This document shows positions 40,865 through 63,898 of a DNA stretch of 64,000 bases, piece by piece (within the stretch, counting starts at the first letter, position 1; each line of letters begins with the position of its first letter). The position numbers and the translations under genes were made by a program. The notes beneath the pieces are model-generated. The model was not told where the DNA came from, did not search any database, and worked only from the letters and a program-made list of their open reading frames with translations. The stretch lies in the NCBI RefSeq assembly GCF_050304635.1, contig NZ_JBNLDX010000012.1; one strand, written 5' to 3'. Source of the stretch: Haliangium sp. GTDB lineage: Bacteria; Myxococcota_A; Polyangia; Haliangiales; Haliangiaceae.

Positions 40865-41959
40865 CTAACGCTCGAACGGCTGTTCGGGAGCCGCCTCTGC
40901 GGCGGCGTCGTCGAGGTGCGCGAGGTAGGTGTCGCCCAGGGCCACGGTGCCCGCCATGCCGCCGTTCTCACCGAGGATATAGGTCCGCTCCTTGGCGACG
41001 CCGACCTGCTCGTAGGCGTAGATGTCGCTGCTGGCGTTGCCGTAGGCCAGGTCGATGGTGAAGCCGAGGTCGAGCACGGACTGCAGAAAATCGGCCTTGT
41101 AGTCGCCCACCGCGCTCTCCGACGGCCACGAGTCGGCGACCTCGTCGGTGAGGTGCACGGTGCCGCCGGGGAAGCTCAGGTCGTCGAGCCAGCCGCGGGT
41201 GAGGGCGTCGAGCAGATAGGGCCGTCCGGTGAGGTAGATGAGCTCGTAGCCCTGCTGGTGTCGTAGCGCGGCGATGTCGTGCGCGCCGGCGCGGGCGTCG
41301 GGCGGGGCGACGATCCCGGTCAGGATCTCGGCCACGATTTGCCCCACCAGTTCGCTATCGCTGGTGGTGAGGGTGGCGTCGATGTCGAACACCACGAAGT
41401 GGGTCCCGGGCGGGTACACGCGCAGCACCGAGGCGGCCGTGCTGTCATCGCCCATGACTCGGAACACCAGCCCGTAGACGCCCGCCGCGGGCACCTCGGC
41501 GCTGCTCAGGGGCAGGCCGATGCGGCCGTCGGAGTTGCTGACCTGCTCGCCCAGCTTGCGATAACCCCCGGCGCAGTCATCGATCCAGACCTCGATCCGC
41601 TCGCCCTCCAGATCCTTGCTGATGTCCCCGTACGAGAACTTGCCCGCCAGGTTGGTGTCGTGTCCGGTCGCGGCGATCACGTCCTGGGCGCTGTGCCACG
41701 GGTCGGCGAGGGTGATGACGTCGTTCAGTGGGTTCGACCAGTCCACCTGGGGCAGATCGGCAGGCATCACGCCGTCCATGCAGGTGCGGAACCCGACCGT
41801 CGGCGGCACCTGCGCGTCCGGGGGCGACGGCGGCGGGCCGGCGTCTGGGCCTGATGGCGGGTCGGGCGGGTCGCCGCCGGGGTCGTCAGGGGTGGCCATG
41901 CAGCCCAGGGCAGGAGTGAGCAGGAGGGCCATCGCGGCCAGCCGAGGGGAGGACTTCAT
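40865..41959 (-). CDS. HAD-superfamily (LNS2/App1-like) phosphatase lipoprotein
   Basis: ORF trimmed to MKSSPRLAAMALLLTPALGC (lipobox). FVVFDIDATLT (DxDxT nucleophile motif), YLTGRPY, GNASSDIYAY consistent with HAD motifs I-III. Confidence 0.6.
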   Translation of the reverse strand: MKSSPRLAAMALLLTPALGCMATPDDPGGDPPDPPSGPDAGPPPSPPDAQVPPTVGFRTCMDGVMPADLPQVDWSNPLNDVITLADPWHSAQDVIAATGHDTNLAGKFSYGDISKDLEGERIEVWIDDCAGGYRKLGEQVSNSDGRIGLPLSSAEVPAAGVYGLVFRVMGDDSTAASVLRVYPPGTHFVVFDIDATLTTSDSELVGQIVAEILTGIVAPPDARAGAHDIAALRHQQGYELIYLTGRPYLLDALTRGWLDDLSFPGGTVHLTDEVADSWPSESAVGDYKADFLQSVLDLGFTIDLAYGNASSDIYAYEQVGVAKERTYILGENGGMAGTVALGDTYLAHLDDAAAEAAPEQPFER

Positions 41960-42179
41960 ATGCGATCCTTTCGGGAACAATGGCGGCGTCATCTGCTCCC
42001 GGTATTCAGCAAACCCCGTGCCGCCTCTGCCGGGCCCAGAGCGCGCATACTTCCATGTCTGCACGGGGGTCGGCTGTGGCCGATGTACCTCAGCCTGTGA
42101 CGTGGATGTCTCGCCTGCACCACGCGATGCGGTCGACGGTCGAGCCCTCGGCGTCGAGATCGCGCGATCGCCGCGGCGC

Positions 42180-45857
<3,678 letters not shown>

Positions 45858-52975: not shown

Positions 52976-53967
52976 CCCAGCCCCAACCGCGTCTCCTCGT
53001 GTTCGCCGGCCGCCGACGCCGCGCCGGCGGCTCGCTCGCAATCTCCCTCGTGGGGGTCCTCGTCGGGATCTTCGCATGGGCCTGGCCGGCCCCGGCCCGG
53101 GCCCAGGAGTTGGCCGGCATCGACCTGGCCCGGCTCATCGAGCAGGTCAGCCCGGCCGGGCTGGTGGTGTCGCTGATCGTCATCGCCATCGCGCTGCTGG
53201 TACTCCGCTTCATCACTGGTCTGACCGACTCCCTGAGCAAGCGGTTCTCGGACCGGCGCCTGATGCTGCAGCAGATCAGCACCGTGCTTCGGTTCATCAT
53301 CTACGTGCTCACCAGCATCCTGGTGGTGAGCGCGTCGATTCGACTCGAGGGCCAGGTCCTGGTCGCGCTGGCGGTGGCCATCGGCTTCGCGCTCAAGGAC
53401 CTGGCGTCGTCGGTGCTGGCCGGCATCATCATCCTCTTCGATCGGCCCTTTCAAGTCGGTGACCGTGTCACCGTCGCCGGCCACTACGGCGAGATCCTCG
53501 CCATCGGGCTGCGCTCCGTGCGTCTGGTCACCCTCGACGACTCGCTGGTGACCATCCCGAACAATCGTTTTCTCACCGAAGCGGTGGTGTCGGGCAACGC
53601 CGGCGCGCTCGACATGCAGATCGTCATGGACTTCTACGTCGCCATCGACAGCGACCTGCGCACCGCCAAGCGCATCGTATACGAGGCGGTTCGGACCAGC
53701 CGCTTCGTCTACCTGGAAAAGCCAGTCGTAGTGCTGGTGACCGATATCATCGAGTCGTCCTACTTCGCGACACGGCTGCGTGCGAAGGCTTACGTGCTCG
53801 ACGTGCGCTATGAGAAGCTGTTCGCGTCGGATGTAACCGAGCGGGTCAAAATGGCGTACCTCGACCAGGGGATTCGCCCTCCCTCGGTGCTTCACCGCGG
53901 CACCGACGCCAGCCGCCAGGCACCTGCGCACCCGCCCGCGCCGGTTGCAAGTTCATCTCCCGAGTGA
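52972..53967 (+). CDS. MscS-family mechanosensitive ion channel
   Basis: Three TM helices followed by ILFDRPFQVGDRVTVAGHYGEILAIGLRSVRLVTLDDSLVTIPNNRF, the canonical MscS TM3/beta-domain signature. Translationally coupled to the upstream ATPase gene. Confidence 0.9.
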   Translation: MTQPQPRLLVFAGRRRRAGGSLAISLVGVLVGIFAWAWPAPARAQELAGIDLARLIEQVSPAGLVVSLIVIAIALLVLRFITGLTDSLSKRFSDRRLMLQQISTVLRFIIYVLTSILVVSASIRLEGQVLVALAVAIGFALKDLASSVLAGIIILFDRPFQVGDRVTVAGHYGEILAIGLRSVRLVTLDDSLVTIPNNRFLTEAVVSGNAGALDMQIVMDFYVAIDSDLRTAKRIVYEAVRTSRFVYLEKPVVVLVTDIIESSYFATRLRAKAYVLDVRYEKLFASDVTERVKMAYLDQGIRPPSVLHRGTDASRQAPAHPPAPVASSSPE

Positions 53968-53971
53968 GACA

Positions 53972-56900
53972 ATGGGAGACGCGCACTTCGCGTCGCTGCC
54001 AAGCTCAAACGACTCCGTATTTGCCATGACCGACCAGGGTGACGAACGTTCGTTGCCGAGACGGGCCACCTCTACGGCCGCCGACCTCGATGACGACACG
54101 GTAGTCGAGGACCAACCAGCGCCGGACGAGCGGACGTGGGCCGCGCTGCACGCCAAGCTCGCCAGCGGTGCGCGCGCGCGTGCCGCGCGCCGGGAGGACG
54201 CGCTCCGGCGGGAAGCCGCCACCCAAAAAGACCCGACCCACGAGGACGTCACCCAGGAAGACGAGACCGTGCGCCGGAACCCGGTCTCTCCTCACGAGGA
54301 GCCCACCCGGCGCTACGGAGAGCCACGGGCGAGGAACCTCCGCGCCCGCGATCGCCTCGCCAGCGAAACCTACGACGTCGACATCGACGCGCCCACCGGG
54401 GTGCTCGCGCGCCCGCGTCCGTATCGAGTCGTACGATCGGACGACAAAGAGCTCGAAGGCGGGCGGCCCGGGCAGCCACCGCCGGCGGCGTTGCCGTCCC
54501 TGGCCGACGTGGTGACCTCGTTCGAGTCGCCGGCGGAGCCCGGCACCCGCGCGACGGCGGTGGCCGAACCTTCGACTCTGTCGATCTCGGTCGAGTCGCT
54601 GCCCGACGTCGAGGATCGGCTCGGTTCGGAGCTCAGTCTGGTCCAGGCGACCGGTGAAATCCCCACGGTGACCGCCGTGGCCGGGCGTCACGGCGAATAT
54701 CTGCCGGTGGGGACGAGCGTAGGGCGGTACGTGGTGCTGGGCGCCCTAGCCGTCGGCGGCATGGGCGTGGTCTACACTGCCTACGACCCCGAGTTGGACC
54801 GCAAGGTGGCCCTCAAGCTGATGCGGGTGAACCCCGGACGATCGGTCGACAAGGCCTGCGCCCGGCTCCTGCGTGAGGCCCAGGCTTTGGCCCGGTTGGC
54901 CCACCCCAACGTCATCGCGGTATACGACGCTGGGCGCTTGGGCGAGCAGGTGTTCGTGGCTATGGAGTTAGTCGAGGGCGTCACTCTGCGTCGTTGGCTC
55001 GACGAGGAGACCCCGGCGCTGAGCGACATCCTGGCCGCGTTCTGGGCCGCGGGGCAGGGCCTGGCGGCTGCTCACGCGGCCGGCCTGGTCCACCGCGACT
55101 TCAAGCCCGAGAACGTCATGATGGGCGCTGACGGGCGTGTGCGCGTGCTCGATTTCGGTCTGGCCCGAGCGGCGCAGCAAGCCGCCGACTCGTCGCTGCC
55201 CGGCTCGGACTCGCCACCGGACGCGGAGGTCGCGGGCGCCGGCGTAGAGACCGCGCCCGAGCCGGCCGCCGAGGTCGGTGTCGACACCACCGTCGACGAC
55301 GACGCGCACGGAGAGGATCCGCACGCGCCGTTGGCGCAGTTCAACCCGGCGGCCGTGGAGAGGCCCGGCACCCTCACCCGAGCCGGGGTGTCGAACCTCG
55401 CGTCTCGGCGCGTCCTCCACAACCCCTTGACCGCTCACGGCGCGCTGGTGGGGACCCCCGGGTACATGGCTCCGGAGCAGTACGGCGGCGGGAGCACGGA
55501 CGCACGCACCGATCAGTTCTCGTTCTGCGTGGCCTTGTACGAGGCCGTGTGTGGGCATAGGCCATTTTCGGGCACCCGTCCCGAAGAGGTTGCTTATCAG
55601 ATGGCGTCGGGCCAGATCGAGCCACCACCGCCGCAGGCGCGGACCCCGGCCTGGCTGGTGACCATGATGATCCGTGGCCTGTCGGCTGAACCCGAGCAGC
55701 GCTACCCCTCGATGAATCACCTCCTGGCCGACCTCGAGCACGGCATGCAGCGGGGCGCGCGGCTGGTGCGCATGGGCACGGCCATCGGCATCGCCGCCCT
55801 CGTGATGATGGTGGTCGTGGGCGCGGCCTTTCTGGTTACGGGTGAGCGTGCCCGCAGCGCGGCCTTGTGCCAAGGCAGCGAGGAGCGCCTGGCCACGGTC
55901 TGGAACGACGACCTGGCCGCCACCGTGGCTGCGGGCTTCGCGGCCAGCGGGCGCCCACACGCCAGCGAGGCCTTCGAGCAGGTGGCGCGTGAGATCGAGA
56001 CCTACGGCCGCGATTGGGTCGCCATCCGCGTCGACACCTGCGAAGCCACTCACATCCGCGGCGAGCGCTCGGAGGCCATGCTCGACCTGAGCATGAGCTG
56101 CCTCGATCGCCGCTTGGGCACCCTGCGCGCCCTCACCGGCGTGTTCGTGCGCGAGATCGGCGACGACGGCGGCCTCGACGGCGCCGTGGTCGATCGTGCC
56201 CTGGGCGCGGTCCGACAGTTGCCGGGGCTGCGCGGCTGCACCGATGAGCTGGCGCTGCGCGACACCTACCCGATGCCGGGCGATCCCGAGCTGCGCCAGG
56301 CCATCGCGACCCTCACTGAGGACGTCGACGACGTCGAGGCCCGGATCCAGATCGGTCAGTATCGGGCGGTGTCGGAGTCGCTGGCGAGGCTGGTACAGCG
56401 CGCCGATGAGCTCGACTTCCCGCCTTTGCAGGCGCGCACACGCTATCTGTCGGGCCAGACACAGCACGCCCTGGGCAACCTGAGCAGCGCCGAGATCAGG
56501 TTCCACGAGGCGGTCGGCATGGCGGCCGAGGCCCGTGACGATCGCCTGCTGGCGGCGCTGTGGACCAAGCTCATGTGGCTGGTGGGCGCGGGTCAGGGAC
56601 GTTATCAAGAGGCGCTGCGCATGCGTCCCATGGCGGCGGCGTCGATCTCGCGGGCGGGGGGCGACGGCGCCTTGGAGGCCGACTTGCTCGCCCACGCCGG
56701 CATGCTCTTGGCGCGGCTGGGCGAGAACGCCGAGGCCGAGTCGATGCTGCGCCGGGCGGTCGACCTGGGCACGGCGACCCTCGGCGCCGACCACCCCCAG
56801 GTGTCCAAGTACATGAGCTTTCTGGGCGAGCTGTACTTCGCCCAGGCGGACTACGACATGGCCTTGGAGTCCCAAGAGCGCTTGATCGAGACCACCCAAG

Positions 56901-57991
56901 ACGTGTGCGGCGCCGAGCACCTGTTCTTGGTCGAGCCCCTGATCAGCATCGGCCGCATCCACACCGAGCAGAGTCGCTTCCAGGAGGCCCTGGGCCGCTT
57001 CCAGCAGGCCGCCGCCATCGAGCGCGCCAACCTCGGCGACGACGCCCCCGGCATGGCTCGGCACCTGCTGGACATCGGCCTGGCCCAGCTCATGCTTGGC
57101 GATCACGACGCCGCCGAGAAGGCCCTGGACCAAGCCTGGCAGATCGCCGATCGCGCCTACCCGGCGGATCATCCCCGCCTGGCCGAGGTGCTATTGGGCC
57201 GGGGGCGGCTGCACATGGCCCGTGGTCAGCTCGGCGTCGCCGAGAACGAGTTGGAGCGCGCCCGGGTGATCTGCGAGGCCACCTTCGGGCGCCGCCACGA
57301 GCGCCACGCCGAGGCCGTGTGGCACCTTGGGGCCGTGGCCCTGGCCCGGGGCGCTCTCGACCTCGCCGAGGAGCGGTTCCGCGAGGCGCTCGCCGTCCGC
57401 GAGGCGTTGCTCGCGCCCGATCACCCCGCGGTGGCCGAGGCCCTGCACGGGCTGGGTCGCACGCTCGTGGCCACTGGCGCTTATGATCAGGCCGAGGCCG
57501 CGCTGCAGCGGGCGTTGTCGATCTACGAGCGCCGCGAGGAAGGCGAAGGCGCGCGTGCGGCGGCTGTGCTCGCCGATCTAGGCGCGATGTGGGCCGCCCA
57601 GGGCGAGCACGCGTCGGCGCTCGACCAACTCTCGCGCGCGCTTGCGCTGAAGGAGCGCGTGCTCGGCGCGGACCACCCCGACCTGGCGGCGACCCTCACC
57701 GCATTGGGGCGGGTCCACCTTGCGCTCGGCGACCCCGAGGTCGCCGCTGTGTCGCTGCGACGGGCGATGACGATCCGCGAGGCCCGGCCCGGTCCGGCCC
57801 TGGCGCTGGCCCGCACCCGCCTCGCCCTGGCCCGCGCGCTGTGTGCGGCCCGGCTGTCCGAGTCAGACCTGAGCGAGGCCCGCAAGCTGGCGACGCGCGC
57901 GCGCGCTGAGCTACTCGAGGCCGACATCGAGAGTCGGCCCCAGAGTCGTCTCGCCGCCCAACTCGACGCCGTGCTGACACAGTGCCGCTGA
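53972..57991 (+). CDS. Ser/Thr kinase - single TM - large TPR-repeat domain protein
   Basis: ATG 53972, 4 nt after the MscS stop. Kinase: GGMGVVYTA, VALKLM, LVHRDFKPENVMM, DFGLAR, GTPGYMAPE. TM GTAIGIAALVMMVVVGAAFLV. About 700 aa of TPR-like repeats (LAEVLLGRGRLHMARGQLGVAENELERA, etc.). Confidence 0.85.
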   Translation: MGDAHFASLPSSNDSVFAMTDQGDERSLPRRATSTAADLDDDTVVEDQPAPDERTWAALHAKLASGARARAARREDALRREAATQKDPTHEDVTQEDETVRRNPVSPHEEPTRRYGEPRARNLRARDRLASETYDVDIDAPTGVLARPRPYRVVRSDDKELEGGRPGQPPPAALPSLADVVTSFESPAEPGTRATAVAEPSTLSISVESLPDVEDRLGSELSLVQATGEIPTVTAVAGRHGEYLPVGTSVGRYVVLGALAVGGMGVVYTAYDPELDRKVALKLMRVNPGRSVDKACARLLREAQALARLAHPNVIAVYDAGRLGEQVFVAMELVEGVTLRRWLDEETPALSDILAAFWAAGQGLAAAHAAGLVHRDFKPENVMMGADGRVRVLDFGLARAAQQAADSSLPGSDSPPDAEVAGAGVETAPEPAAEVGVDTTVDDDAHGEDPHAPLAQFNPAAVERPGTLTRAGVSNLASRRVLHNPLTAHGALVGTPGYMAPEQYGGGSTDARTDQFSFCVALYEAVCGHRPFSGTRPEEVAYQMASGQIEPPPPQARTPAWLVTMMIRGLSAEPEQRYPSMNHLLADLEHGMQRGARLVRMGTAIGIAALVMMVVVGAAFLVTGERARSAALCQGSEERLATVWNDDLAATVAAGFAASGRPHASEAFEQVAREIETYGRDWVAIRVDTCEATHIRGERSEAMLDLSMSCLDRRLGTLRALTGVFVREIGDDGGLDGAVVDRALGAVRQLPGLRGCTDELALRDTYPMPGDPELRQAIATLTEDVDDVEARIQIGQYRAVSESLARLVQRADELDFPPLQARTRYLSGQTQHALGNLSSAEIRFHEAVGMAAEARDDRLLAALWTKLMWLVGAGQGRYQEALRMRPMAAASISRAGGDGALEADLLAHAGMLLARLGENAEAESMLRRAVDLGTATLGADHPQVSKYMSFLGELYFAQADYDMALESQERLIETTQDVCGAEHLFLVEPLISIGRIHTEQSRFQEALGRFQQAAAIERANLGDDAPGMARHLLDIGLAQLMLGDHDAAEKALDQAWQIADRAYPADHPRLAEVLLGRGRLHMARGQLGVAENELERARVICEATFGRRHERHAEAVWHLGAVALARGALDLAEERFREALAVREALLAPDHPAVAEALHGLGRTLVATGAYDQAEAALQRALSIYERREEGEGARAAAVLADLGAMWAAQGEHASALDQLSRALALKERVLGADHPDLAATLTALGRVHLALGDPEVAAVSLRRAMTIREARPGPALALARTRLALARALCAARLSESDLSEARKLATRARAELLEADIESRPQSRLAAQLDAVLTQCR

Positions 57992-59283: not shown

Positions 59284-59428
59284 TTCGGAGCAAGTGCACC
59301 AACAAGACACACGTCCGGCGCCGCGCATGGGCTGGTAGCCGTGGCAAATCCGGCACTTGCCGCCGGCACGGTGCTTGCTCTTGGCCTGGAGACCGGTGAG
59401 CAGCAAGTCCACAAGGAGAGCAAGGCCC
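59284..59428. promoter_or_regulatory. Divergent intergenic region between kynA (-) and the MVP-like gene (+)
   Basis: Strong AAGGAGAG Shine-Dalgarno 8 nt before ATG 59429. Imperfect inverted repeat gcaagtgcacc ... ggcacttgcc/ggtgcttgc. Confidence 0.4.
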
Positions 59429-61462
59429 ATGGCAGAACGAGACATTCGCGAACGCGACATCCTGGTTGCCCCCAACGAGTACGCCTACGTGCAGGACCTC
59501 ACCAAGGGAGACATCGTCCTCTACGTCGGCCCCACCAAGATCAGCCTGTCCAACACCGAGCGCATGATCATCCTGCGCGACGGCCGCTTCGTGCCCGTGC
59601 GCGGCGACGAGGCCGGGCTGGGGGTACACAAGTTCGTCGCGGCCTCATCATCGCAGTACATCATCCTCGAGAACCCGCCCCAGGACCCCGACGACAAGCC
59701 GGTCAAGGGCGCAAACTCGGCCATCCCGCTCCGCTTCGGGCGCAAGGTCGTCGTGCCCGGCCCGGCCGAGTTCCCGCTCTGGCCCGGGCAGCGGGCCCAG
59801 GTCATCGACGGCCACGAGCTGCGCCTGGACCAGTACCTCGTCGTCCGTGTGTACGACGATATGGGCGACGGCGAGCCGATCGGCACCGAGCACATCATCT
59901 GCGGCACTGACGTGAGCTTCTACATCCCGCCCAGCGGCCTGGAGGTGGTGCCCAACCGCAACGGCAGCTACGTGCGCCGGGCCTGGCGTATGGAGCGCAA
60001 CAAGGGCCTGCACCTGCGCGTGCGCGCGCCCTTCGAGGTCGGCCCCGCCGCGCAGGTGCCCGAGGGCCGATACCTGGCCGGGCAGGACATCTTCCTGCGC
60101 GACCGCGAGGGCATGTTTTTCCCCTCCGACAACCTGGACGTCGTGGGCGAGGTGGCTCCGATCCCGCTGGCCGAAAACGAGGCCATCTACGCGCGCGAGT
60201 TGGGCACGGGCAAGCTCACCACCGTCGAGGGTCCGGTGAACTACCTGGTCGATCCCACCCGCGAGGAACTGGTCACGCGTCGGCTCGACGAGCGCCGGGC
60301 GGTGCTGTTCCGGCTCGACACCGACAGCCGCGACCCCAACCGGGCGTGGTCGATCTACGTGCCCCCGAGCACAGCGGTGATGATCACGGCCAAGAACAAG
60401 CGCGAGGTGGTGAGCGGGCCCCAGACCCGCATCCTGCACTACGACGAGGAGCTCGAGGTTCTGACCTTATCGACCGGGCGACCGAAGAGCGACGAGGAGC
60501 TCTTGCCCACCTGCTTCTTGCAGGTACAGGGCAACAAGGTGTCGGACCTGGTCCGGGTCAAGACCTCCGACCACGTCGGGCTCGAGATCCTGCTGTCGTA
60601 TCGAGTGTCGTTCGTGGGCGACTCCGAGCGCTGGTTCAACGTCAAGGACTATGTCGGCCTGCTATGCGACCACCTCGGTTCGATCATCCGCGCGGCCGCG
60701 CGGACGAGTTCGATCGAGACCTTCCACGGCACCAGCACTGACATCTTGCGCACCGCCATCCTGGGCGCGCGCGGCGACGACGGCGAGCGCGAGGGGCGGC
60801 ACTTCAAGGAGAACGGGATGTGGGTCTACGACGTCGAGGTGCTCGACGTGCGCATCCTGGACCAGGACGTCGAGCGCATGCTGCAGGAGGCCCAGCGCAT
60901 GGCGATCGTCTCGGCGATCACGCGCAGGCAGGAGGAGCTGCGACTGGGCGACGAGAACCTCAAGGAGTCGGTCAACCGAGAGATCTACGGCGCCCAGATG
61001 GAGACCCTGGCCAAGGCTGCCGAGCACGAGGCCGTGAGCCGCACCGTGGAGCTGGCGCGGATCGGGACCATCATCGAGCGCGACCGCCTGGACAAGATCG
61101 GCCGGGCCGAGCACGAGGCTGAGGCCGACGCGATCCGCAGCCGGGCTCGGCTCGAGATCGCCGACCGCGAGGCCGGGTTGGCGCGGGAGGCCCTGGCCGC
61201 GCGCTCGGCGGCCTTTCGCGAGCAGATGGAGGCGCTGCAGCCCGAGCTCATCGCGACCCTCAAGGGCCTGGCTGGGCAGCAGCTCGCCGGCGCTTTGTCC
61301 AAGAACCTGTCGCCGCTGGCCATCCTCGGCGGCGAGAGCGTGGCCGAGGTGGCCGCGCGCTTGCTCGACCGTCTGCCCCTGGGCTCCAAGTCGGGCCCGG
61401 CGGCCGACATCCAAGGCATCCTTGGCCTGGTGCCGTCGCCGGACCAGGGCGAGTCGGCGTAG
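59429..61462 (+). CDS. Major vault protein (MVP) homolog: N-terminal MVP repeats + SPFH/band-7-like shoulder domain + coiled-coil cap helix + disordered tail
   Basis: 677 aa. ILVAPNEYAYVQDLTKGDIVLYVGPTKISLSNTERMI aligns to eukaryotic MVP [37 protein letters not shown]. Further matches PLAENEAIYARELGTGKLTTVEGP (vs [21 protein letters not shown]), VLTLSTGRPK (vs VLSLSAGRPK), DHVGLEILLSYRVSF, FHGTSTDILRTAILG, ENGMWVYDVEVLDVRILDQ, then a long Ala/Glu/Arg coiled coil. Confidence 0.8.
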   Translation: MAERDIRERDILVAPNEYAYVQDLTKGDIVLYVGPTKISLSNTERMIILRDGRFVPVRGDEAGLGVHKFVAASSSQYIILENPPQDPDDKPVKGANSAIPLRFGRKVVVPGPAEFPLWPGQRAQVIDGHELRLDQYLVVRVYDDMGDGEPIGTEHIICGTDVSFYIPPSGLEVVPNRNGSYVRRAWRMERNKGLHLRVRAPFEVGPAAQVPEGRYLAGQDIFLRDREGMFFPSDNLDVVGEVAPIPLAENEAIYARELGTGKLTTVEGPVNYLVDPTREELVTRRLDERRAVLFRLDTDSRDPNRAWSIYVPPSTAVMITAKNKREVVSGPQTRILHYDEELEVLTLSTGRPKSDEELLPTCFLQVQGNKVSDLVRVKTSDHVGLEILLSYRVSFVGDSERWFNVKDYVGLLCDHLGSIIRAAARTSSIETFHGTSTDILRTAILGARGDDGEREGRHFKENGMWVYDVEVLDVRILDQDVERMLQEAQRMAIVSAITRRQEELRLGDENLKESVNREIYGAQMETLAKAAEHEAVSRTVELARIGTIIERDRLDKIGRAEHEAEADAIRSRARLEIADREAGLAREALAARSAAFREQMEALQPELIATLKGLAGQQLAGALSKNLSPLAILGGESVAEVAARLLDRLPLGSKSGPAADIQGILGLVPSPDQGESA

Positions 61463-61492
61463 ACGCCTGCTCGGCCCGGGGCTGGCGCGCGC
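61244..61492. repeat. Copy 1 of a ~250-bp segmental duplication (MVP 3' coding end + 30 bp 3' flank)
   Basis: gagctcatcgcgaccctcaagggcctggctgggcagcagc...gagtcggcgtagacgcctgctcggcccggggctggcgcgcgcg. About 90% identical to 61969-62219. Confidence 0.8.
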
Positions 61493-61968
61493 GTGGGCGG
61501 GTAGCCCTCTGGTCCAGGGTGGGCTCTCGTCTATTCGTGGTCGACCATGGACCGTGCGACGCCCGAGTTCCGGTTGCTGTGCGCACGAGTCGGCATGGCA
61601 GCGGGGGCAAATTCGGGCTGGCACACGCGTGTACGGGATTCGATCGTCGCCGGTTCGATGCTTGCTGGGCTGGACCGGCCCAGACGAGCCCACGGCCCTA
61701 CCGGCGGACGACTCGCACGAACGCCTATCTCTCCCTCCGGTCAACGGCTCTCTCCCCCATGGCTGCCGGCGTTCACCTCGTCTCGACCTTGTCCTGGCAT
61801 CCGACTCGTCTCTGTACTCCTGCCCATCGCGGCATCGTCTCGGCCCTCCGTCCGATCTGGGTTGGTCGGAGCAGACAACGACGCCGCCTTCGGGCCGTGG
61901 GCTCGCCCGGGCCTGTGCCGTCCTCGCCTCTGCCCAGATAGGCTCTTCGCTCGGTGGGCTCTGCAGCA

Positions 61969-62219
61969 CGAGCTCATCGCGCCCCGCAAGGGCTTGGCCG
62001 GGCAGCAGCGTGCCGGCGCCTTGTCCAAGGATCTGTCGCCACTGGCCATCCTCGGCGGCGAGAGCGTGGCCGAGGTGGCCGCACGCTTGCTGGAACGCCT
62101 CCCCCTTGGACCCAAGTCCGGCCCGGCGGCCGACATCCAAGGCATCCTTGGCCTGGTGCCGTCGTCGGACCAGGGTGAGTCGGCGCAGCCGCCTGGTCGT
62201 CCCGGGGCTGGAGCGCGCG
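61969..62219 (+). pseudogene. Copy 2 of the duplication: orphan fragment encoding the last ~74 aa of the MVP-like protein (stop TAG->CAG), embedded in non-coding-looking low-GC sequence
   Basis: Encodes LIAPRKGLAGQQRAGALSKDLSPLAILGGESVAEVAARLLERLPLGPKSGPAADIQGILGLVPSSDQGESAQ inside track ORF 61547..62359, whose upstream 140 aa have no protein-like character. Confidence 0.45.
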
Positions 62220-62503
62220 GCCGACGCGGCGACGGCGTGCGGCAACTTCGGGCCAGTGAAAGCACTCACACCCTCGGAGCTCGCGTTGAGTTGTGGCTGG
62301 ATGCCGCGCTGCGTCACGAAGGTTTCGACACGTGTGTCAGCTTGGACACAGGCGCTTGAGCGATGTAACCCCCAACTGCAACAAAAGGAGCGGCCGCTCT
62401 TCCAGAGTATCTCAGGTGCCTATCTGACGGGGGTGAGAGCGATTCAGTCAGCAGTGGAACGACCGCCGCAGGTAGTTCCGCTAGCGAGATTGTCGGAGGC
62501 GGT

Positions 62504-63898
62504 GTGTATGATGCAACCGGGATGGCATTCGAGAAAGCACCTCGTCTATTCCGCGACCCAGTACACTTGCAGCTTCGCTACGAGCGGGTCGAAGACGAAC
62601 GGCACATCCCTTCACCAGCATTCGGTGACAAGCGCTTCGGCTGGGTGATGCAGCGGCTTATCGACACCCCAGTCTTCCAGAGGCTACGGCACATCCGTCA
62701 GAACGGGTTGACCAATTTAGTGTTCCATGGCGCCGAGCACTCACGTTTCAGTCACTCGATGGGTGTGGCCTATCTGGCCGGCGAGATGTACGATCGCATC
62801 TGCCGCAACATGGGTGAAGAGCCCGATGACGAGACCCGGCTGGCGACATGTGCGGCAGGACTGCTGCACGACATCGGACACGGTCCCTTCTCGCATACTC
62901 TCGAGGAGGCTCTCGATGTTCTAGGGATCGAGTTCGCTCACGAAGCGATGACCTTGCGTATCATCAGAGAGTCGGTTGTCGCCGAGACTCTGGGCCATGT
63001 CGATCAGACCTTTCCCGAACGCGTCGCCGAGTATATTAGTAAGAAGGTAAAGAAACCACATTGGAGTCACAAATTAGTGTCGAGTCAGCTCGATGCAGAT
63101 CGGCTCGATTATCTGCTGCGCGATGCAGCGGCATGCGGACTTCGCGGCCATACTTACGATTTAGCTCGTCTTTTGGATATGCTGCGGCATGTGGATGGAC
63201 AATTGGTCGGTGTGGATCGCAAGGGGTTGGAAACCGTCGAGGGATATTTGGTCGCTTTGGATCAAATGTATCGAGCCATCTACTTCCATCACACCGTGCG
63301 GGCTGCGAGCGTGCTTCTGACCTCCGTCCTTCGTCGTGCCGTCATGCTGGCAAGCAATGGAGACAAAGATGTATTCTCAACGCGAGACCGACGTCATCCA
63401 TTGAAGCGATTTTTCGACACAGGTGGACAGTGCGACCTTGAGACATATTCCCACTTGGGCGAATTCCACGTCTGGGTCCTCGTTGACGAATGGAGAGGGC
63501 ACCCGGACCCGATCCTTTCAGATCTTTCTCGGCGACTCTACGAGCGCCGTCTACCAAAGACAATACAGTTACCGGCTAAGCCCAAGCAGTCATTAGAGCT
63601 GATAGCCAAAGCTCGTGATCTCACCTGTAAGCGCATCGCCCATGTTGATGCCACATTGGTTGACTTCTACGTCGCCGTAGATGAGGCCGAGCGAACCAGC
63701 TACAAGCTGTATGACTGGCGAGAGGAGGAAAAGCCGGACGAGTCTATCTACATCTGTGAACGTAACGGCAAGAGCTGGCCTATTCACGCTTATGGTGAGA
63801 GCAAGATTATTAATGCGCTGAAGGATACCCGCTACGTCTCACGGCTGATGTTCCCGTATGAGATTCGGGACGATATGCAAGCAGGAGCACTACGATGA
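62504..63898 (+). CDS. HD-domain phosphohydrolase of the dGTPase/SAMHD1-like (COG1078) dNTP triphosphohydrolase family
   Basis: GTG start with GGAGG Shine-Dalgarno. HSRFSHSMGVAYLA, AAGLLHDIGHGPFSH, QLDADRLDYLLRDAAACGL. About 52% GC vs ~70% host background. Confidence 0.8.
   Translation: MYDATGMAFEKAPRLFRDPVHLQLRYERVEDERHIPSPAFGDKRFGWVMQRLIDTPVFQRLRHIRQNGLTNLVFHGAEHSRFSHSMGVAYLAGEMYDRICRNMGEEPDDETRLATCAAGLLHDIGHGPFSHTLEEALDVLGIEFAHEAMTLRIIRESVVAETLGHVDQTFPERVAEYISKKVKKPHWSHKLVSSQLDADRLDYLLRDAAACGLRGHTYDLARLLDMLRHVDGQLVGVDRKGLETVEGYLVALDQMYRAIYFHHTVRAASVLLTSVLRRAVMLASNGDKDVFSTRDRRHPLKRFFDTGGQCDLETYSHLGEFHVWVLVDEWRGHPDPILSDLSRRLYERRLPKTIQLPAKPKQSLELIAKARDLTCKRIAHVDATLVDFYVAVDEAERTSYKLYDWREEEKPDESIYICERNGKSWPIHAYGESKIINALKDTRYVSRLMFPYEIRDDMQAGALR

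Follow-up and report, generated by a model that had tools for sequence, protein, structure and literature searches.

A Short Homolog of the Eukaryotic Major Vault Protein in Haliangium and Its Predicted Vault-Like Architecture

Introduction

The function of vaults, which are abundant particles of eukaryotes, is still a matter of debate, and a tractable prokaryotic vault could show what the purpose of the shell is and where it originated. The eukaryotic major vault protein (MVP) is able to self-assemble into vaults on its own, with lateral association via the cap helix: the first of its repeats forms the waist that joins the two halves of the particle, and the cap helix and the shoulder supply the lateral contacts between neighboring copies (Santos et al., 2023; 10.1101/2023.11.10.566534). 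Here, we describe a bacterial member of this family that is encoded on a stretch of 64,000 nucleotides from Haliangium sp. (contig NZ_JBNLDX010000012.1; the whole stretch is referred to as the window). The coding sequence, recognized from the list of open reading frames (ORFs), Pfam, and a search of the PDB, occupies positions 59429..61462 of the plus strand, with a TAG stop codon at 61460-61462, and specifies a protein of 677 amino acids (aa).

Homologs of MVP in prokaryotes have been known for more than a decade. Daly et al. (2013; PMC3762200) reported bacterial proteins, including one from Corallococcus coralloides and two from Plesiocystis pacifica, for which a fold and docking like those of MVP were predicted. 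Further homologs were found in Myxococcales, Cytophagales, and Oscillatoriales (Sokolskyi, 2019; 10.1101/872010), and MVPs of phages, including gut phages, were described by Santos et al. (2023; 10.1101/2023.11.10.566534). Recently, five-repeat homologs from Asgard archaea were presented together with the model of a decameric cup, which has an interface predicted template modeling score (ipTM) of 0.525 (Kostlbacher et al., 2026; PMC12962969), and an architecture of MVP repeat and SPFH domain was traced across all major archaeal groups (PLoS Comput Biol, 2026; PMC13607799). The initial annotation of the window, which presented a bacterial MVP as a novelty, was therefore overstated in this respect, given the reports of 2013, 2019 and, for archaea, 2026; close relatives are already labeled "major vault protein" by some sources. 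The window protein is a new sequence of a known, experimentally uncharacterized family, and nothing new in kind. For experimental work, cultured myxobacteria with homologs known since 2013 are better starting points than a sequence derived from a metagenome-assembled genome (MAG).

Membership in the MVP Family

The window protein is a true member of the MVP family, as follows from matches to MVP-specific profiles together with confidently modeled repeats of the MVP type. In Pfam, MVP_shoulder (PF11978) covers residues 369-478 with an E-value of 7.7e-29 (100.6 bits, cut-off 25) and Vault_3 covers residues 320-358 (E 7e-7; 29.7 bits against a cut-off of 28.8); the match to Vault_4 at residues 245-281 stays under its cut-off in this protein (19.7 vs. 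22.9 bits). The same combination recurs in the family: among 30 members, MVP_shoulder and Vault_3 are found in 30/30 and Vault_4 in 29/30, as opposed to weak matches to Band_7 in 2/30. From the window protein itself, Band_7 (PF01145) is absent at E<=0.1. The family is hence recognized by MVP-specific domains and not merely by the generic SPFH/band-7 signature, which the initial annotation had named as the outcome that would speak against an MVP.

Alignments to individual proteins agree with the domain matches. A single-sequence phmmer search against the PDB paired residues 142-629 with residues 285-797 of human/rat MVP (E 4e-27), and all significant matches in the PDB sequence search were major vault proteins. 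A profile of the family reached E 1.1e-54 against rat MVP and yielded a second, weaker alignment of query residues 68-260 to rat residues 49-233. Closer to the N-terminus, pairwise BLASTP against a rodent MVP sequence, which had first been confirmed against the PDB, aligned residues 8-83 with rodent residues 5-64 at 26% identity (E 0.001 in one comparison). In isolation, the N-terminal residues 1-144 gave no PDB match by phmmer, the C-terminal residues 597-677 (81 aa) gave no match to an MVP in the PDB, and the final ~50 residues are unmatched to MVP at the sequence level. Thus, the alignment to MVP that was originally claimed for the whole length is strong for residues 142-629 only; it is weak for residues 68-260 (profile) and 8-83 (BLASTP), and it does not extend over the last ~50 residues. 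At the level of structure the whole-length correspondence holds, with a structural comparison that spans the entire chain (see below).

The same alignments bear on four sequence motifs that had been placed at corresponding positions of the bacterial and the eukaryotic protein. For three of them the HMMER alignment with human/rat MVP bears this out, pairing IPLAENEAIY with IPLDQNEGIY in repeat R8 of the rat protein, LSTGRPK with LSAGRPK, and FHGTSTDILRTA with FHKNSARIIRTA; the fourth, VGPT/VGPK, is paired only in the weak BLASTP alignment.

Predicted Structure

The final AlphaFold model (m4d529b6a37c9), a single chain built from an alignment of 118 sequences, has a mean predicted local distance difference test score (pLDDT) of 83.4, with values of 85-97 across residues 10-500. 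An earlier AlphaFold2 run from 30 sequences returned a poor N-terminus (pLDDT 38-60) and the same pattern of Foldseek matches. When the model is compared with the PDB by Foldseek, a check against the rat vault (4V60) that had been proposed from the outset, vault chains determined by cryo-electron microscopy rank first (E 2.5e-35; template modeling score relative to the query, TMq, of 0.57 for 4v60_A), followed by the crystal structure of the mouse repeats R1-R7 (E 2.5e-14; score relative to the target, TMt, of 0.56), whereas the SPFH cages of prohibitin, flotillin, HflK/C, erlin, and stomatin reach just 7e-7 to 1e-4. It is the repeats alone that match mouse R1-R7, so that the β-sandwiches of MVP repeats, on which the initial annotation had made its reading depend, are present in the model.

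All parts of the protein are encoded on the plus strand, and the model divides them as follows. Repeat 1 (59450..59599, aa 8-57; pLDDT 88-93) is the counterpart of rat R1, the waist of the vault. Repeats 2-4 (59600..60127; aa 58-119, 120-178, and 179-233) are β-sandwich modules delimited by their strand pattern (pLDDT 84-96), and repeats 5-6 (60128..60502; aa 234-304 and 305-358) are the counterparts of rat R8 and R9, corresponding to Vault_4 and Vault_3. The repeats lead into a shoulder with a fold of the SPFH/band-7 type (60503..60862, aa 359-478; MVP_shoulder; pLDDT >90), which is followed by the cap helix (60863..61234, aa 479-602). According to DSSP on the model, the latter is one continuous helix of 124 residues, and HMMER pairs it with the cap-helix region of rat MVP, up to residue 772-797. 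The chain ends in a C-terminal tail (61235..61459, aa 603-677) that bears the motif LSPLAILGGESV at aa 628-638 and is variable in its last ~27 residues; in the monomeric model, the tail consists of two short helices of low pLDDT.

The boundaries of the repeats are approximate. Since an internal comparison by hhalign finds significant likeness only between repeats 1 and 5 (E 1e-5), the count of six is taken from the structure model; it agrees with the five to six repeats that were estimated initially. Three middle repeats of the rat protein lack a counterpart, because query repeats 3-4 fit rat R3-R4 or R6-R7 and align equally to both pairs in the profile comparison. With these qualifications on the boundaries, the six-repeat architecture is now modeled with confidence.

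Conservation and Putative Assembly

The distribution of conserved residues sets some parts of the protein apart. Among 30 homologs with an overall identity of 58-80%, repeat 1 is the most conserved part, with 33 of its 50 residues invariant and the near-invariant sequence RERDILVAPNEYAYVQDLTKGDIVLYVGPTKISLSNTER, even though identity outside this repeat is only ~60%. The shoulder is strongly conserved as well. In the tail, 12/37 positions are invariant over aa 614-650, where the motif SPLAILGG is invariant or nearly so within the conserved stretch SPLAILGGESV, compared to 0/27 over aa 651-677. Variability is greatest in the cap helix, which is the least conserved of the structured parts (mean column conservation 0.60), and in the last 27 residues. 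The gene is under strong purifying selection. The frozen repeat 1 points to a critical interface and marks a prime surface for mutation, and the pattern as a whole fits, but does not prove, the logic of waist (repeat 1) and lateral contacts that is known from eukaryotic vaults.

As for localization, hydropathy on the Kyte-Doolittle scale peaks at 1.08 (over 19 residues), and the protein carries a net charge of -21. Neither a hydrophobic or transmembrane stretch nor a lipoprotein signal was detected, and charged residues mark the N-terminus (MAERDIRERD). Because it is acidic and devoid of a hydrophobic segment, the protein should be soluble and cytoplasmic, unlike the membrane-anchored SPFH proteins.

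Considering fold, conservation, and solubility together, we find it reasonably probable that the window protein self-assembles into a soluble, homo-oligomeric, vault-like cup, which is closed by cap helices and tails and possibly paired via repeat 1 into a short barrel. The smaller vault-like nanocompartment of the initial annotation is plausible in these terms. Many copies of the protein would pack side by side through shoulder and cap helix to form a closed cup, the C-terminal tails would close its pole, and two cups may join via the near-invariant repeat 1, giving a barrel that would not reach the length of the eukaryotic vault. If the geometry of the rat vault is scaled down, which provides an estimate only, the ring would comprise a few tens of subunits, and the length would be about three quarters of that of the rat particle. 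Since no partner gene travels with the MVP gene (see below), any cargo would have to come from genes at other sites of the genome, or the shell might act alone.

Several observations weigh against such an assembly. Just one multimer model has been published for a short prokaryotic MVP, and its confidence is modest (decamer ipTM 0.525; PMC12962969), the cage is derived here from a single-chain model, and no experimental work on any prokaryotic MVP was found in the literature searched. The similarity to eukaryotic MVP, including that of animals, is low, at 20-26% identity, and for the conserved C-terminal tail, phmmer against the PDB gives no match to the cap-ring of eukaryotic MVP. Moreover, the companions of the eukaryotic particle are missing from the surroundings of the gene: domains of the PARP, TROVE, or WD40/NACHT (TEP1-like) type are absent from the 13 ORFs of the stretch from 35.4 to 63.9 kb that were scanned with Pfam, in line with the early remark that no vPARP or TEP1 homolog is adjacent, and Rfam at gathering thresholds reports nothing in the whole window, so that no vault RNA was detected nearby.

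The fold of the shoulder raises the question of a different kind of cage. In analogy to HflK/C, QmcA, or flotillin-like proteins, the window protein could form a single dome on the cytoplasmic membrane that corrals membrane proteins, without ever being a free, two-halved vault. The shoulder indeed has the SPFH fold, with the matches to flotillin, erlin, HflK/C, prohibitin, and stomatin cages given above; Pfam matches to Band_7 or Flot are present in a few family members, one source names relatives "HflC (stomatin/prohibitin superfamily)", and the conserved repeat 1 could dock something besides a second half-vault. Nevertheless, a membrane-bound dome seems rather unlikely, given that neither a transmembrane segment nor a lipoprotein signal accompanies the low maximum hydropathy, that six repeats of the MVP type sit in the place of the SPFH membrane anchor, and that the MVP fold matches better than the SPFH folds by ~28 orders of magnitude. 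A partner of the NfeD or protease type, too, recurs nowhere beside the gene, and no such family was detected by Pfam among 74 downstream neighbors from related loci.

The long helix invites yet another comparison, which was made in the 2019 preprint: its richness in Ala, Glu, and Arg resembles domain II of TolA (10.1101/872010). Combined with the comparatively low conservation of the cap helix, this resemblance could mean that the protein keeps only the fold of MVP and serves as an elongated scaffold or as an envelope-associated, TolA-like rod without forming a cage. We regard this as quite improbable, and less probable than a membrane dome, because the protein has no membrane anchor, the helix is flanked by a strongly conserved shoulder and tail, as expected of an assembly element, and the similarity to TolA falls into a low-complexity coiled region, with no TolA domain in the Pfam scans.

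Distribution and Relation to Eukaryotic MVP

The prokaryotic MVP family is far bigger and more widespread than the "few Bacteria" mentioned in the literature of 2026. The window protein matches >650 clusters at 90% identity; at 50% identity, the matching representatives number 1,132 with a limit of E<=0.001 and 518 with a limit of E<=1e-30. Two peptide patterns, which were used to collect family loci, retrieved 159 species-level genomes. Most of these belong to the Myxococcota (Haliangiales, Polyangiales, Myxococcaceae, Archangium, Labilithrix), and the others comprise Planctomycetota, Acidobacteriota, Vulcanimicrobiota, Wallbacteria, and several lineages of the candidate phyla radiation (CPR), as well as MAGs labeled Methanosarcinales and Nanoarchaeota. 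In our numbering of loci, L055-L057 and L074 are archaeal MAGs, and L066-L080 stand for Vulcanimicrobiota, Wallbacteria, and CPR; the MAG labels Clostridia, Burkholderiales, and Selenomonadaceae are possible binning errors. Relatives are mostly longer than the window protein (median 859 aa), and forms of 800-980 aa prevail outside the Myxococcota, with the form of 670-770 aa being the type of Myxococcota, Planctomycetota, and Acidobacteriota. The loci of Myxococcaceae, Archangium, Polyangiales, and Haliangiales encode proteins of 660-770 aa that are 53-80% identical to the window protein, and those of the archaeal MAGs (Methanosarcinales, Nanoarchaeota) encode proteins with 39-41% identity.

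Viruses carry related genes, too. Huge uncultured phages of 462-735 kb contain MVP-like genes with 28-35% identity by tblastn (E 3e-39 to 3e-42), located on LR756500.1 (21402-23363), LR756501.1, and LR756503.1 (17320-18918), all of which are GenBank records without annotation, and an 802-aa protein of Harvfovirus (BFVD A0A3G5A4K1) matches the fold at E 4.6e-14. These homologs in huge phages and a giant virus, along with those in gut phages (Santos et al., 2023; 10.1101/2023.11.10.566534), the patchy spread of the family across distant phyla and archaea, and a 3' end that lies next to a duplication and to a gene whose composition is foreign (see below) could be taken to mean that the window gene is mobile or viral cargo, either phage-derived or recently transferred. 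This origin is highly improbable, since the GC content at third codon positions (GC3; 0.92) is in the style of the host, the upstream synteny with a related Haliangium MAG takes in the MVP gene, and orthologs occupy loci throughout Haliangiales, Polyangiales, and Myxococcaceae. Additionally, no phage or plasmid genes adjoin the MVP gene among the Pfam-scanned ORFs of the window, and plasmids and viral contigs gave zero matches for the short subfamily.

With respect to the eukaryotic protein, the rat MVP fragment 285-797 scores a median of 105 bits against short forms vs. 57 bits against long forms, which makes the short subfamily the closest in score among the prokaryotic forms collected, and a rough neighbor-joining tree places rat MVP on a long branch, by distance nearest to the short forms. 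This placement reflects similarity and is not a resolved phylogeny. A far-reaching proposal would be that the short MVP of the Myxococcota type builds a true bacterial vault, i.e., a free, closed, and two-halved particle joined via repeat 1, and also lies near the ancestor of the eukaryotic vault. Both parts together are improbable. On its own, the first part, a true bacterial vault, is moderately likely; the second, a position of the short forms near the eukaryotic vault lineage, is weakly supported by the similarity scores and the rough tree, and published trees favor an affiliation with Asgard archaea. If the proposal were true, the origin of the vault would parallel that of sterol and plasmalogen pathways, for which a myxobacterial source has been proposed.

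The MVP Gene and Its Surroundings

The open frame spans 59357..61462 on the plus strand, and translation from the ATG at 59429 yields the protein of 677 aa. A Shine-Dalgarno-like AAGGAG, read from the sequence, is located at 59413..59418 (plus strand), 10 nt 5' of this ATG. Each of the aligned homologs (118/118) opens with M-x-E-R-D-x-RERDILVAPNEY at the equivalent ATG; the ATG at 59429 is therefore the right start, and a longer frame from a TTG start is unneeded. The 677-aa gene with its Shine-Dalgarno sequence, as first annotated, is thereby confirmed. Across the entire gene, GC at the three codon positions amounts to ~0.7/0.4/0.92, which is the mark of a genuine resident gene in a genome of 70% GC, and regional GC is 0.68-0.69 vs. 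0.70-0.74 over most of the window. The gene is uninterrupted and its codon bias, with a GC3 of about 0.92, is that of the host.

The contig is probably derived from a MAG, and the 100% identical protein in NCBI (P0001) bears the name "hypothetical protein [Haliangium sp.]"; the best match among GTDB representative genomes is 78% to the window protein. Given the probable MAG origin, one might think of eukaryotic contamination or of an assembly artefact, an explanation that is effectively refuted by a GC content of ~70%, an uninterrupted gene with a bacterial ribosome-binding site, flanking genes typical of Myxococcota, an identity of just 20-26% to animal MVP, and >650 close prokaryotic relatives. 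Host-type GC3, bacterial neighbors, and the upstream synteny with a related Haliangium MAG likewise uphold the earlier judgment that the gene is resident.

Neighbors of the MVP gene in the window are genes for a mechanosensitive-channel protein, a Ser/Thr kinase with TPR repeats and, on the opposite strand, tryptophan 2,3-dioxygenase (kynA); an HD-domain protein is encoded 3' of it. Farther 5', there are genes for a kinase, a UvrD-like helicase, an aconitase-family protein, an esterase, a protein with β-lactamase fold, and an amidohydrolase. Flanking genes are typical of Myxococcota, and the 5' genes plus the MVP gene are syntenic with a related Haliangium MAG. For comparison, 80 related loci were taken from species-representative genomes, all of their ORFs were clustered with those of the window, and the 74 downstream neighbors were scanned with Pfam. 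No neighboring gene is conserved over the 80 loci by this clustering: the upstream neighbors share no cluster, and the commonest downstream family occurs in 5/74 loci. The MVP gene is therefore a stand-alone unit, whose genomic context yields no cargo or function. Its consistent stand-alone organization argues against an operon-encoded cargo of the kind known from encapsulins.

The links to kynA and to the HD gene that the initial annotation had raised are not borne out by this comparison, as kynA is adjacent in 2/81 loci only, namely in the window and in a single Haliangium MAG, and the HD gene, being unique to the window, is present in 0/80 related loci. Genes of ~500 aa that abut the MVP gene in several loci were rejected as partners, since they are mutually unrelated (a GH1 glycosidase, a cytochrome c protein, and an unknown secreted protein). 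Membership of the MVP protein in a defense system was also rejected, with no match in PADLOC. The DNA 3' of the MVP gene is conserved in no relative; within 61400-62560, Rfam at E<=1 returned only a chance-level match (E 0.79), and the window contains no tRNA.

Two observations concern the window farther upstream. The gene for the Ser/Thr kinase with TPR repeats (1,348 aa; 53945-57991, plus strand) lies between the MscS-like gene and kynA and is missing from this position in the syntenic Haliangium MAG (locus L002), and hence is a local insertion or rearrangement 5' of the MVP gene. On the minus strand, 40865-42271 encodes a protein of 468 aa with a PITM1-3 β-sandwich and an LNS2 domain (lipin/Nir2-like), both of eukaryotic type (E 2e-24 and 8e-13), which is another eukaryote-like protein within the window.

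A Duplication at the 3' End

Repeat search and pairwise alignment revealed a direct repeat of 263 nt with an offset of 726 nt, both copies lying on the plus strand. Copy A (61231..61493) consists of the 3' end of the MVP gene (its last 232 coding nt) and 31 nt beyond the stop codon. Copy B (61957..62219) is 89% identical to copy A and represents a stop-less pseudo-copy of the last 76 codons, in which the stop codon is altered to CAG; by tblastn, it matches aa 602-677 at 89.5%. Copy B is closest to copy A, not to the orthologs in relatives, and tblastn finds the duplication in none of the 80 other loci. Third codon positions account for 15/24 differences between the copies (binomial P = 0.003), and 13/22 differing codons are synonymous. 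These figures imply that much of the divergence arose with both copies still coding, and a 3' end imported from a related strain would fit better than decay after duplication in place. The 463 nt that separate the copies show no coding periodicity, as is the case around copy B, and the synteny with the nearest MAG ends at the 3' end of the MVP gene.

Farther downstream, 62504-63898 (plus strand) encodes the HD-domain protein of 464 aa, with HD and HD_assoc_2 domains and a partial PADLOC match to dGTPase (E 6e-12). The composition of this dGTPase/SAMHD1-like gene looks foreign, with a regional GC of 0.575 and a GC3 of 0.4-0.7 vs. 0.92 in the MVP gene, and it is possibly a candidate defense gene of the dNTP-hydrolase type on an acquired segment extending beyond the window. 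The duplication itself was probably left behind by an insertion or recombination event at the 3' end of the MVP gene that kept the reading frame, although an assembly artefact of the metagenome-derived contig could produce the same pattern.

Comparison With Known Systems

The SPFH/band-7 cages formed by HflK/C, QmcA, flotillin, prohibitin, stomatin, and erlin share with the window protein the fold of the shoulder and the subsequent long helix, which bundles into a dome whose top is closed by C-terminal segments. However, these cages are membrane-anchored, lack MVP repeats, and often have an NfeD or protease partner, whereas none of this applies to the window protein.

The published bacterial homologs (H8MNI3 of Corallococcus coralloides, A6FXM1/A6FXE2 of Plesiocystis pacifica, A0A0C2D5V5 of Enhygromyxa salina, and others) come from the same phylum and are proteins of the same kind, though possibly not all of exactly this short subfamily. 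What distinguishes the window copy from the other loci is the duplication at its 3' end. Short MVPs of Asgard and other archaea (PMC12962969; PMC13607799) resemble it in having fewer repeats, five in the Lokiarchaeial protein, followed by shoulder and cap helix, and closed cups have been proposed for them. They belong to another domain of life, and the archaeal single-repeat proteins of PMC13607799 are, at 300-400 aa, far smaller than the window protein.

Compared to eukaryotic MVP (rat/human; PDB 4V60, 9BW5, 9R86), the window protein has six repeats instead of nine, with no counterpart of three middle repeats, and a cap helix of ~124 instead of ~156 residues, i.e., about 20% shorter. Its tail is not detectably related to the cap-ring, identity is just 20-26%, vPARP, TEP1, and vault RNA are undetected near the gene, and its assembly into a shell is a prediction. 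Yet the order of parts is the same, with β-repeats leading to an SPFH-type shoulder, a long cap helix, and a C-terminal tail. The Pfam matches of the window protein are specific to MVP (MVP_shoulder, Vault_3, and, below its cut-off, Vault_4), motifs of the two proteins pair within the shoulder as well as in R8 and R9, collinearity with R1 is seen at the N-terminus, and, like its eukaryotic counterpart, the window protein is predicted to be soluble and free of a membrane anchor.

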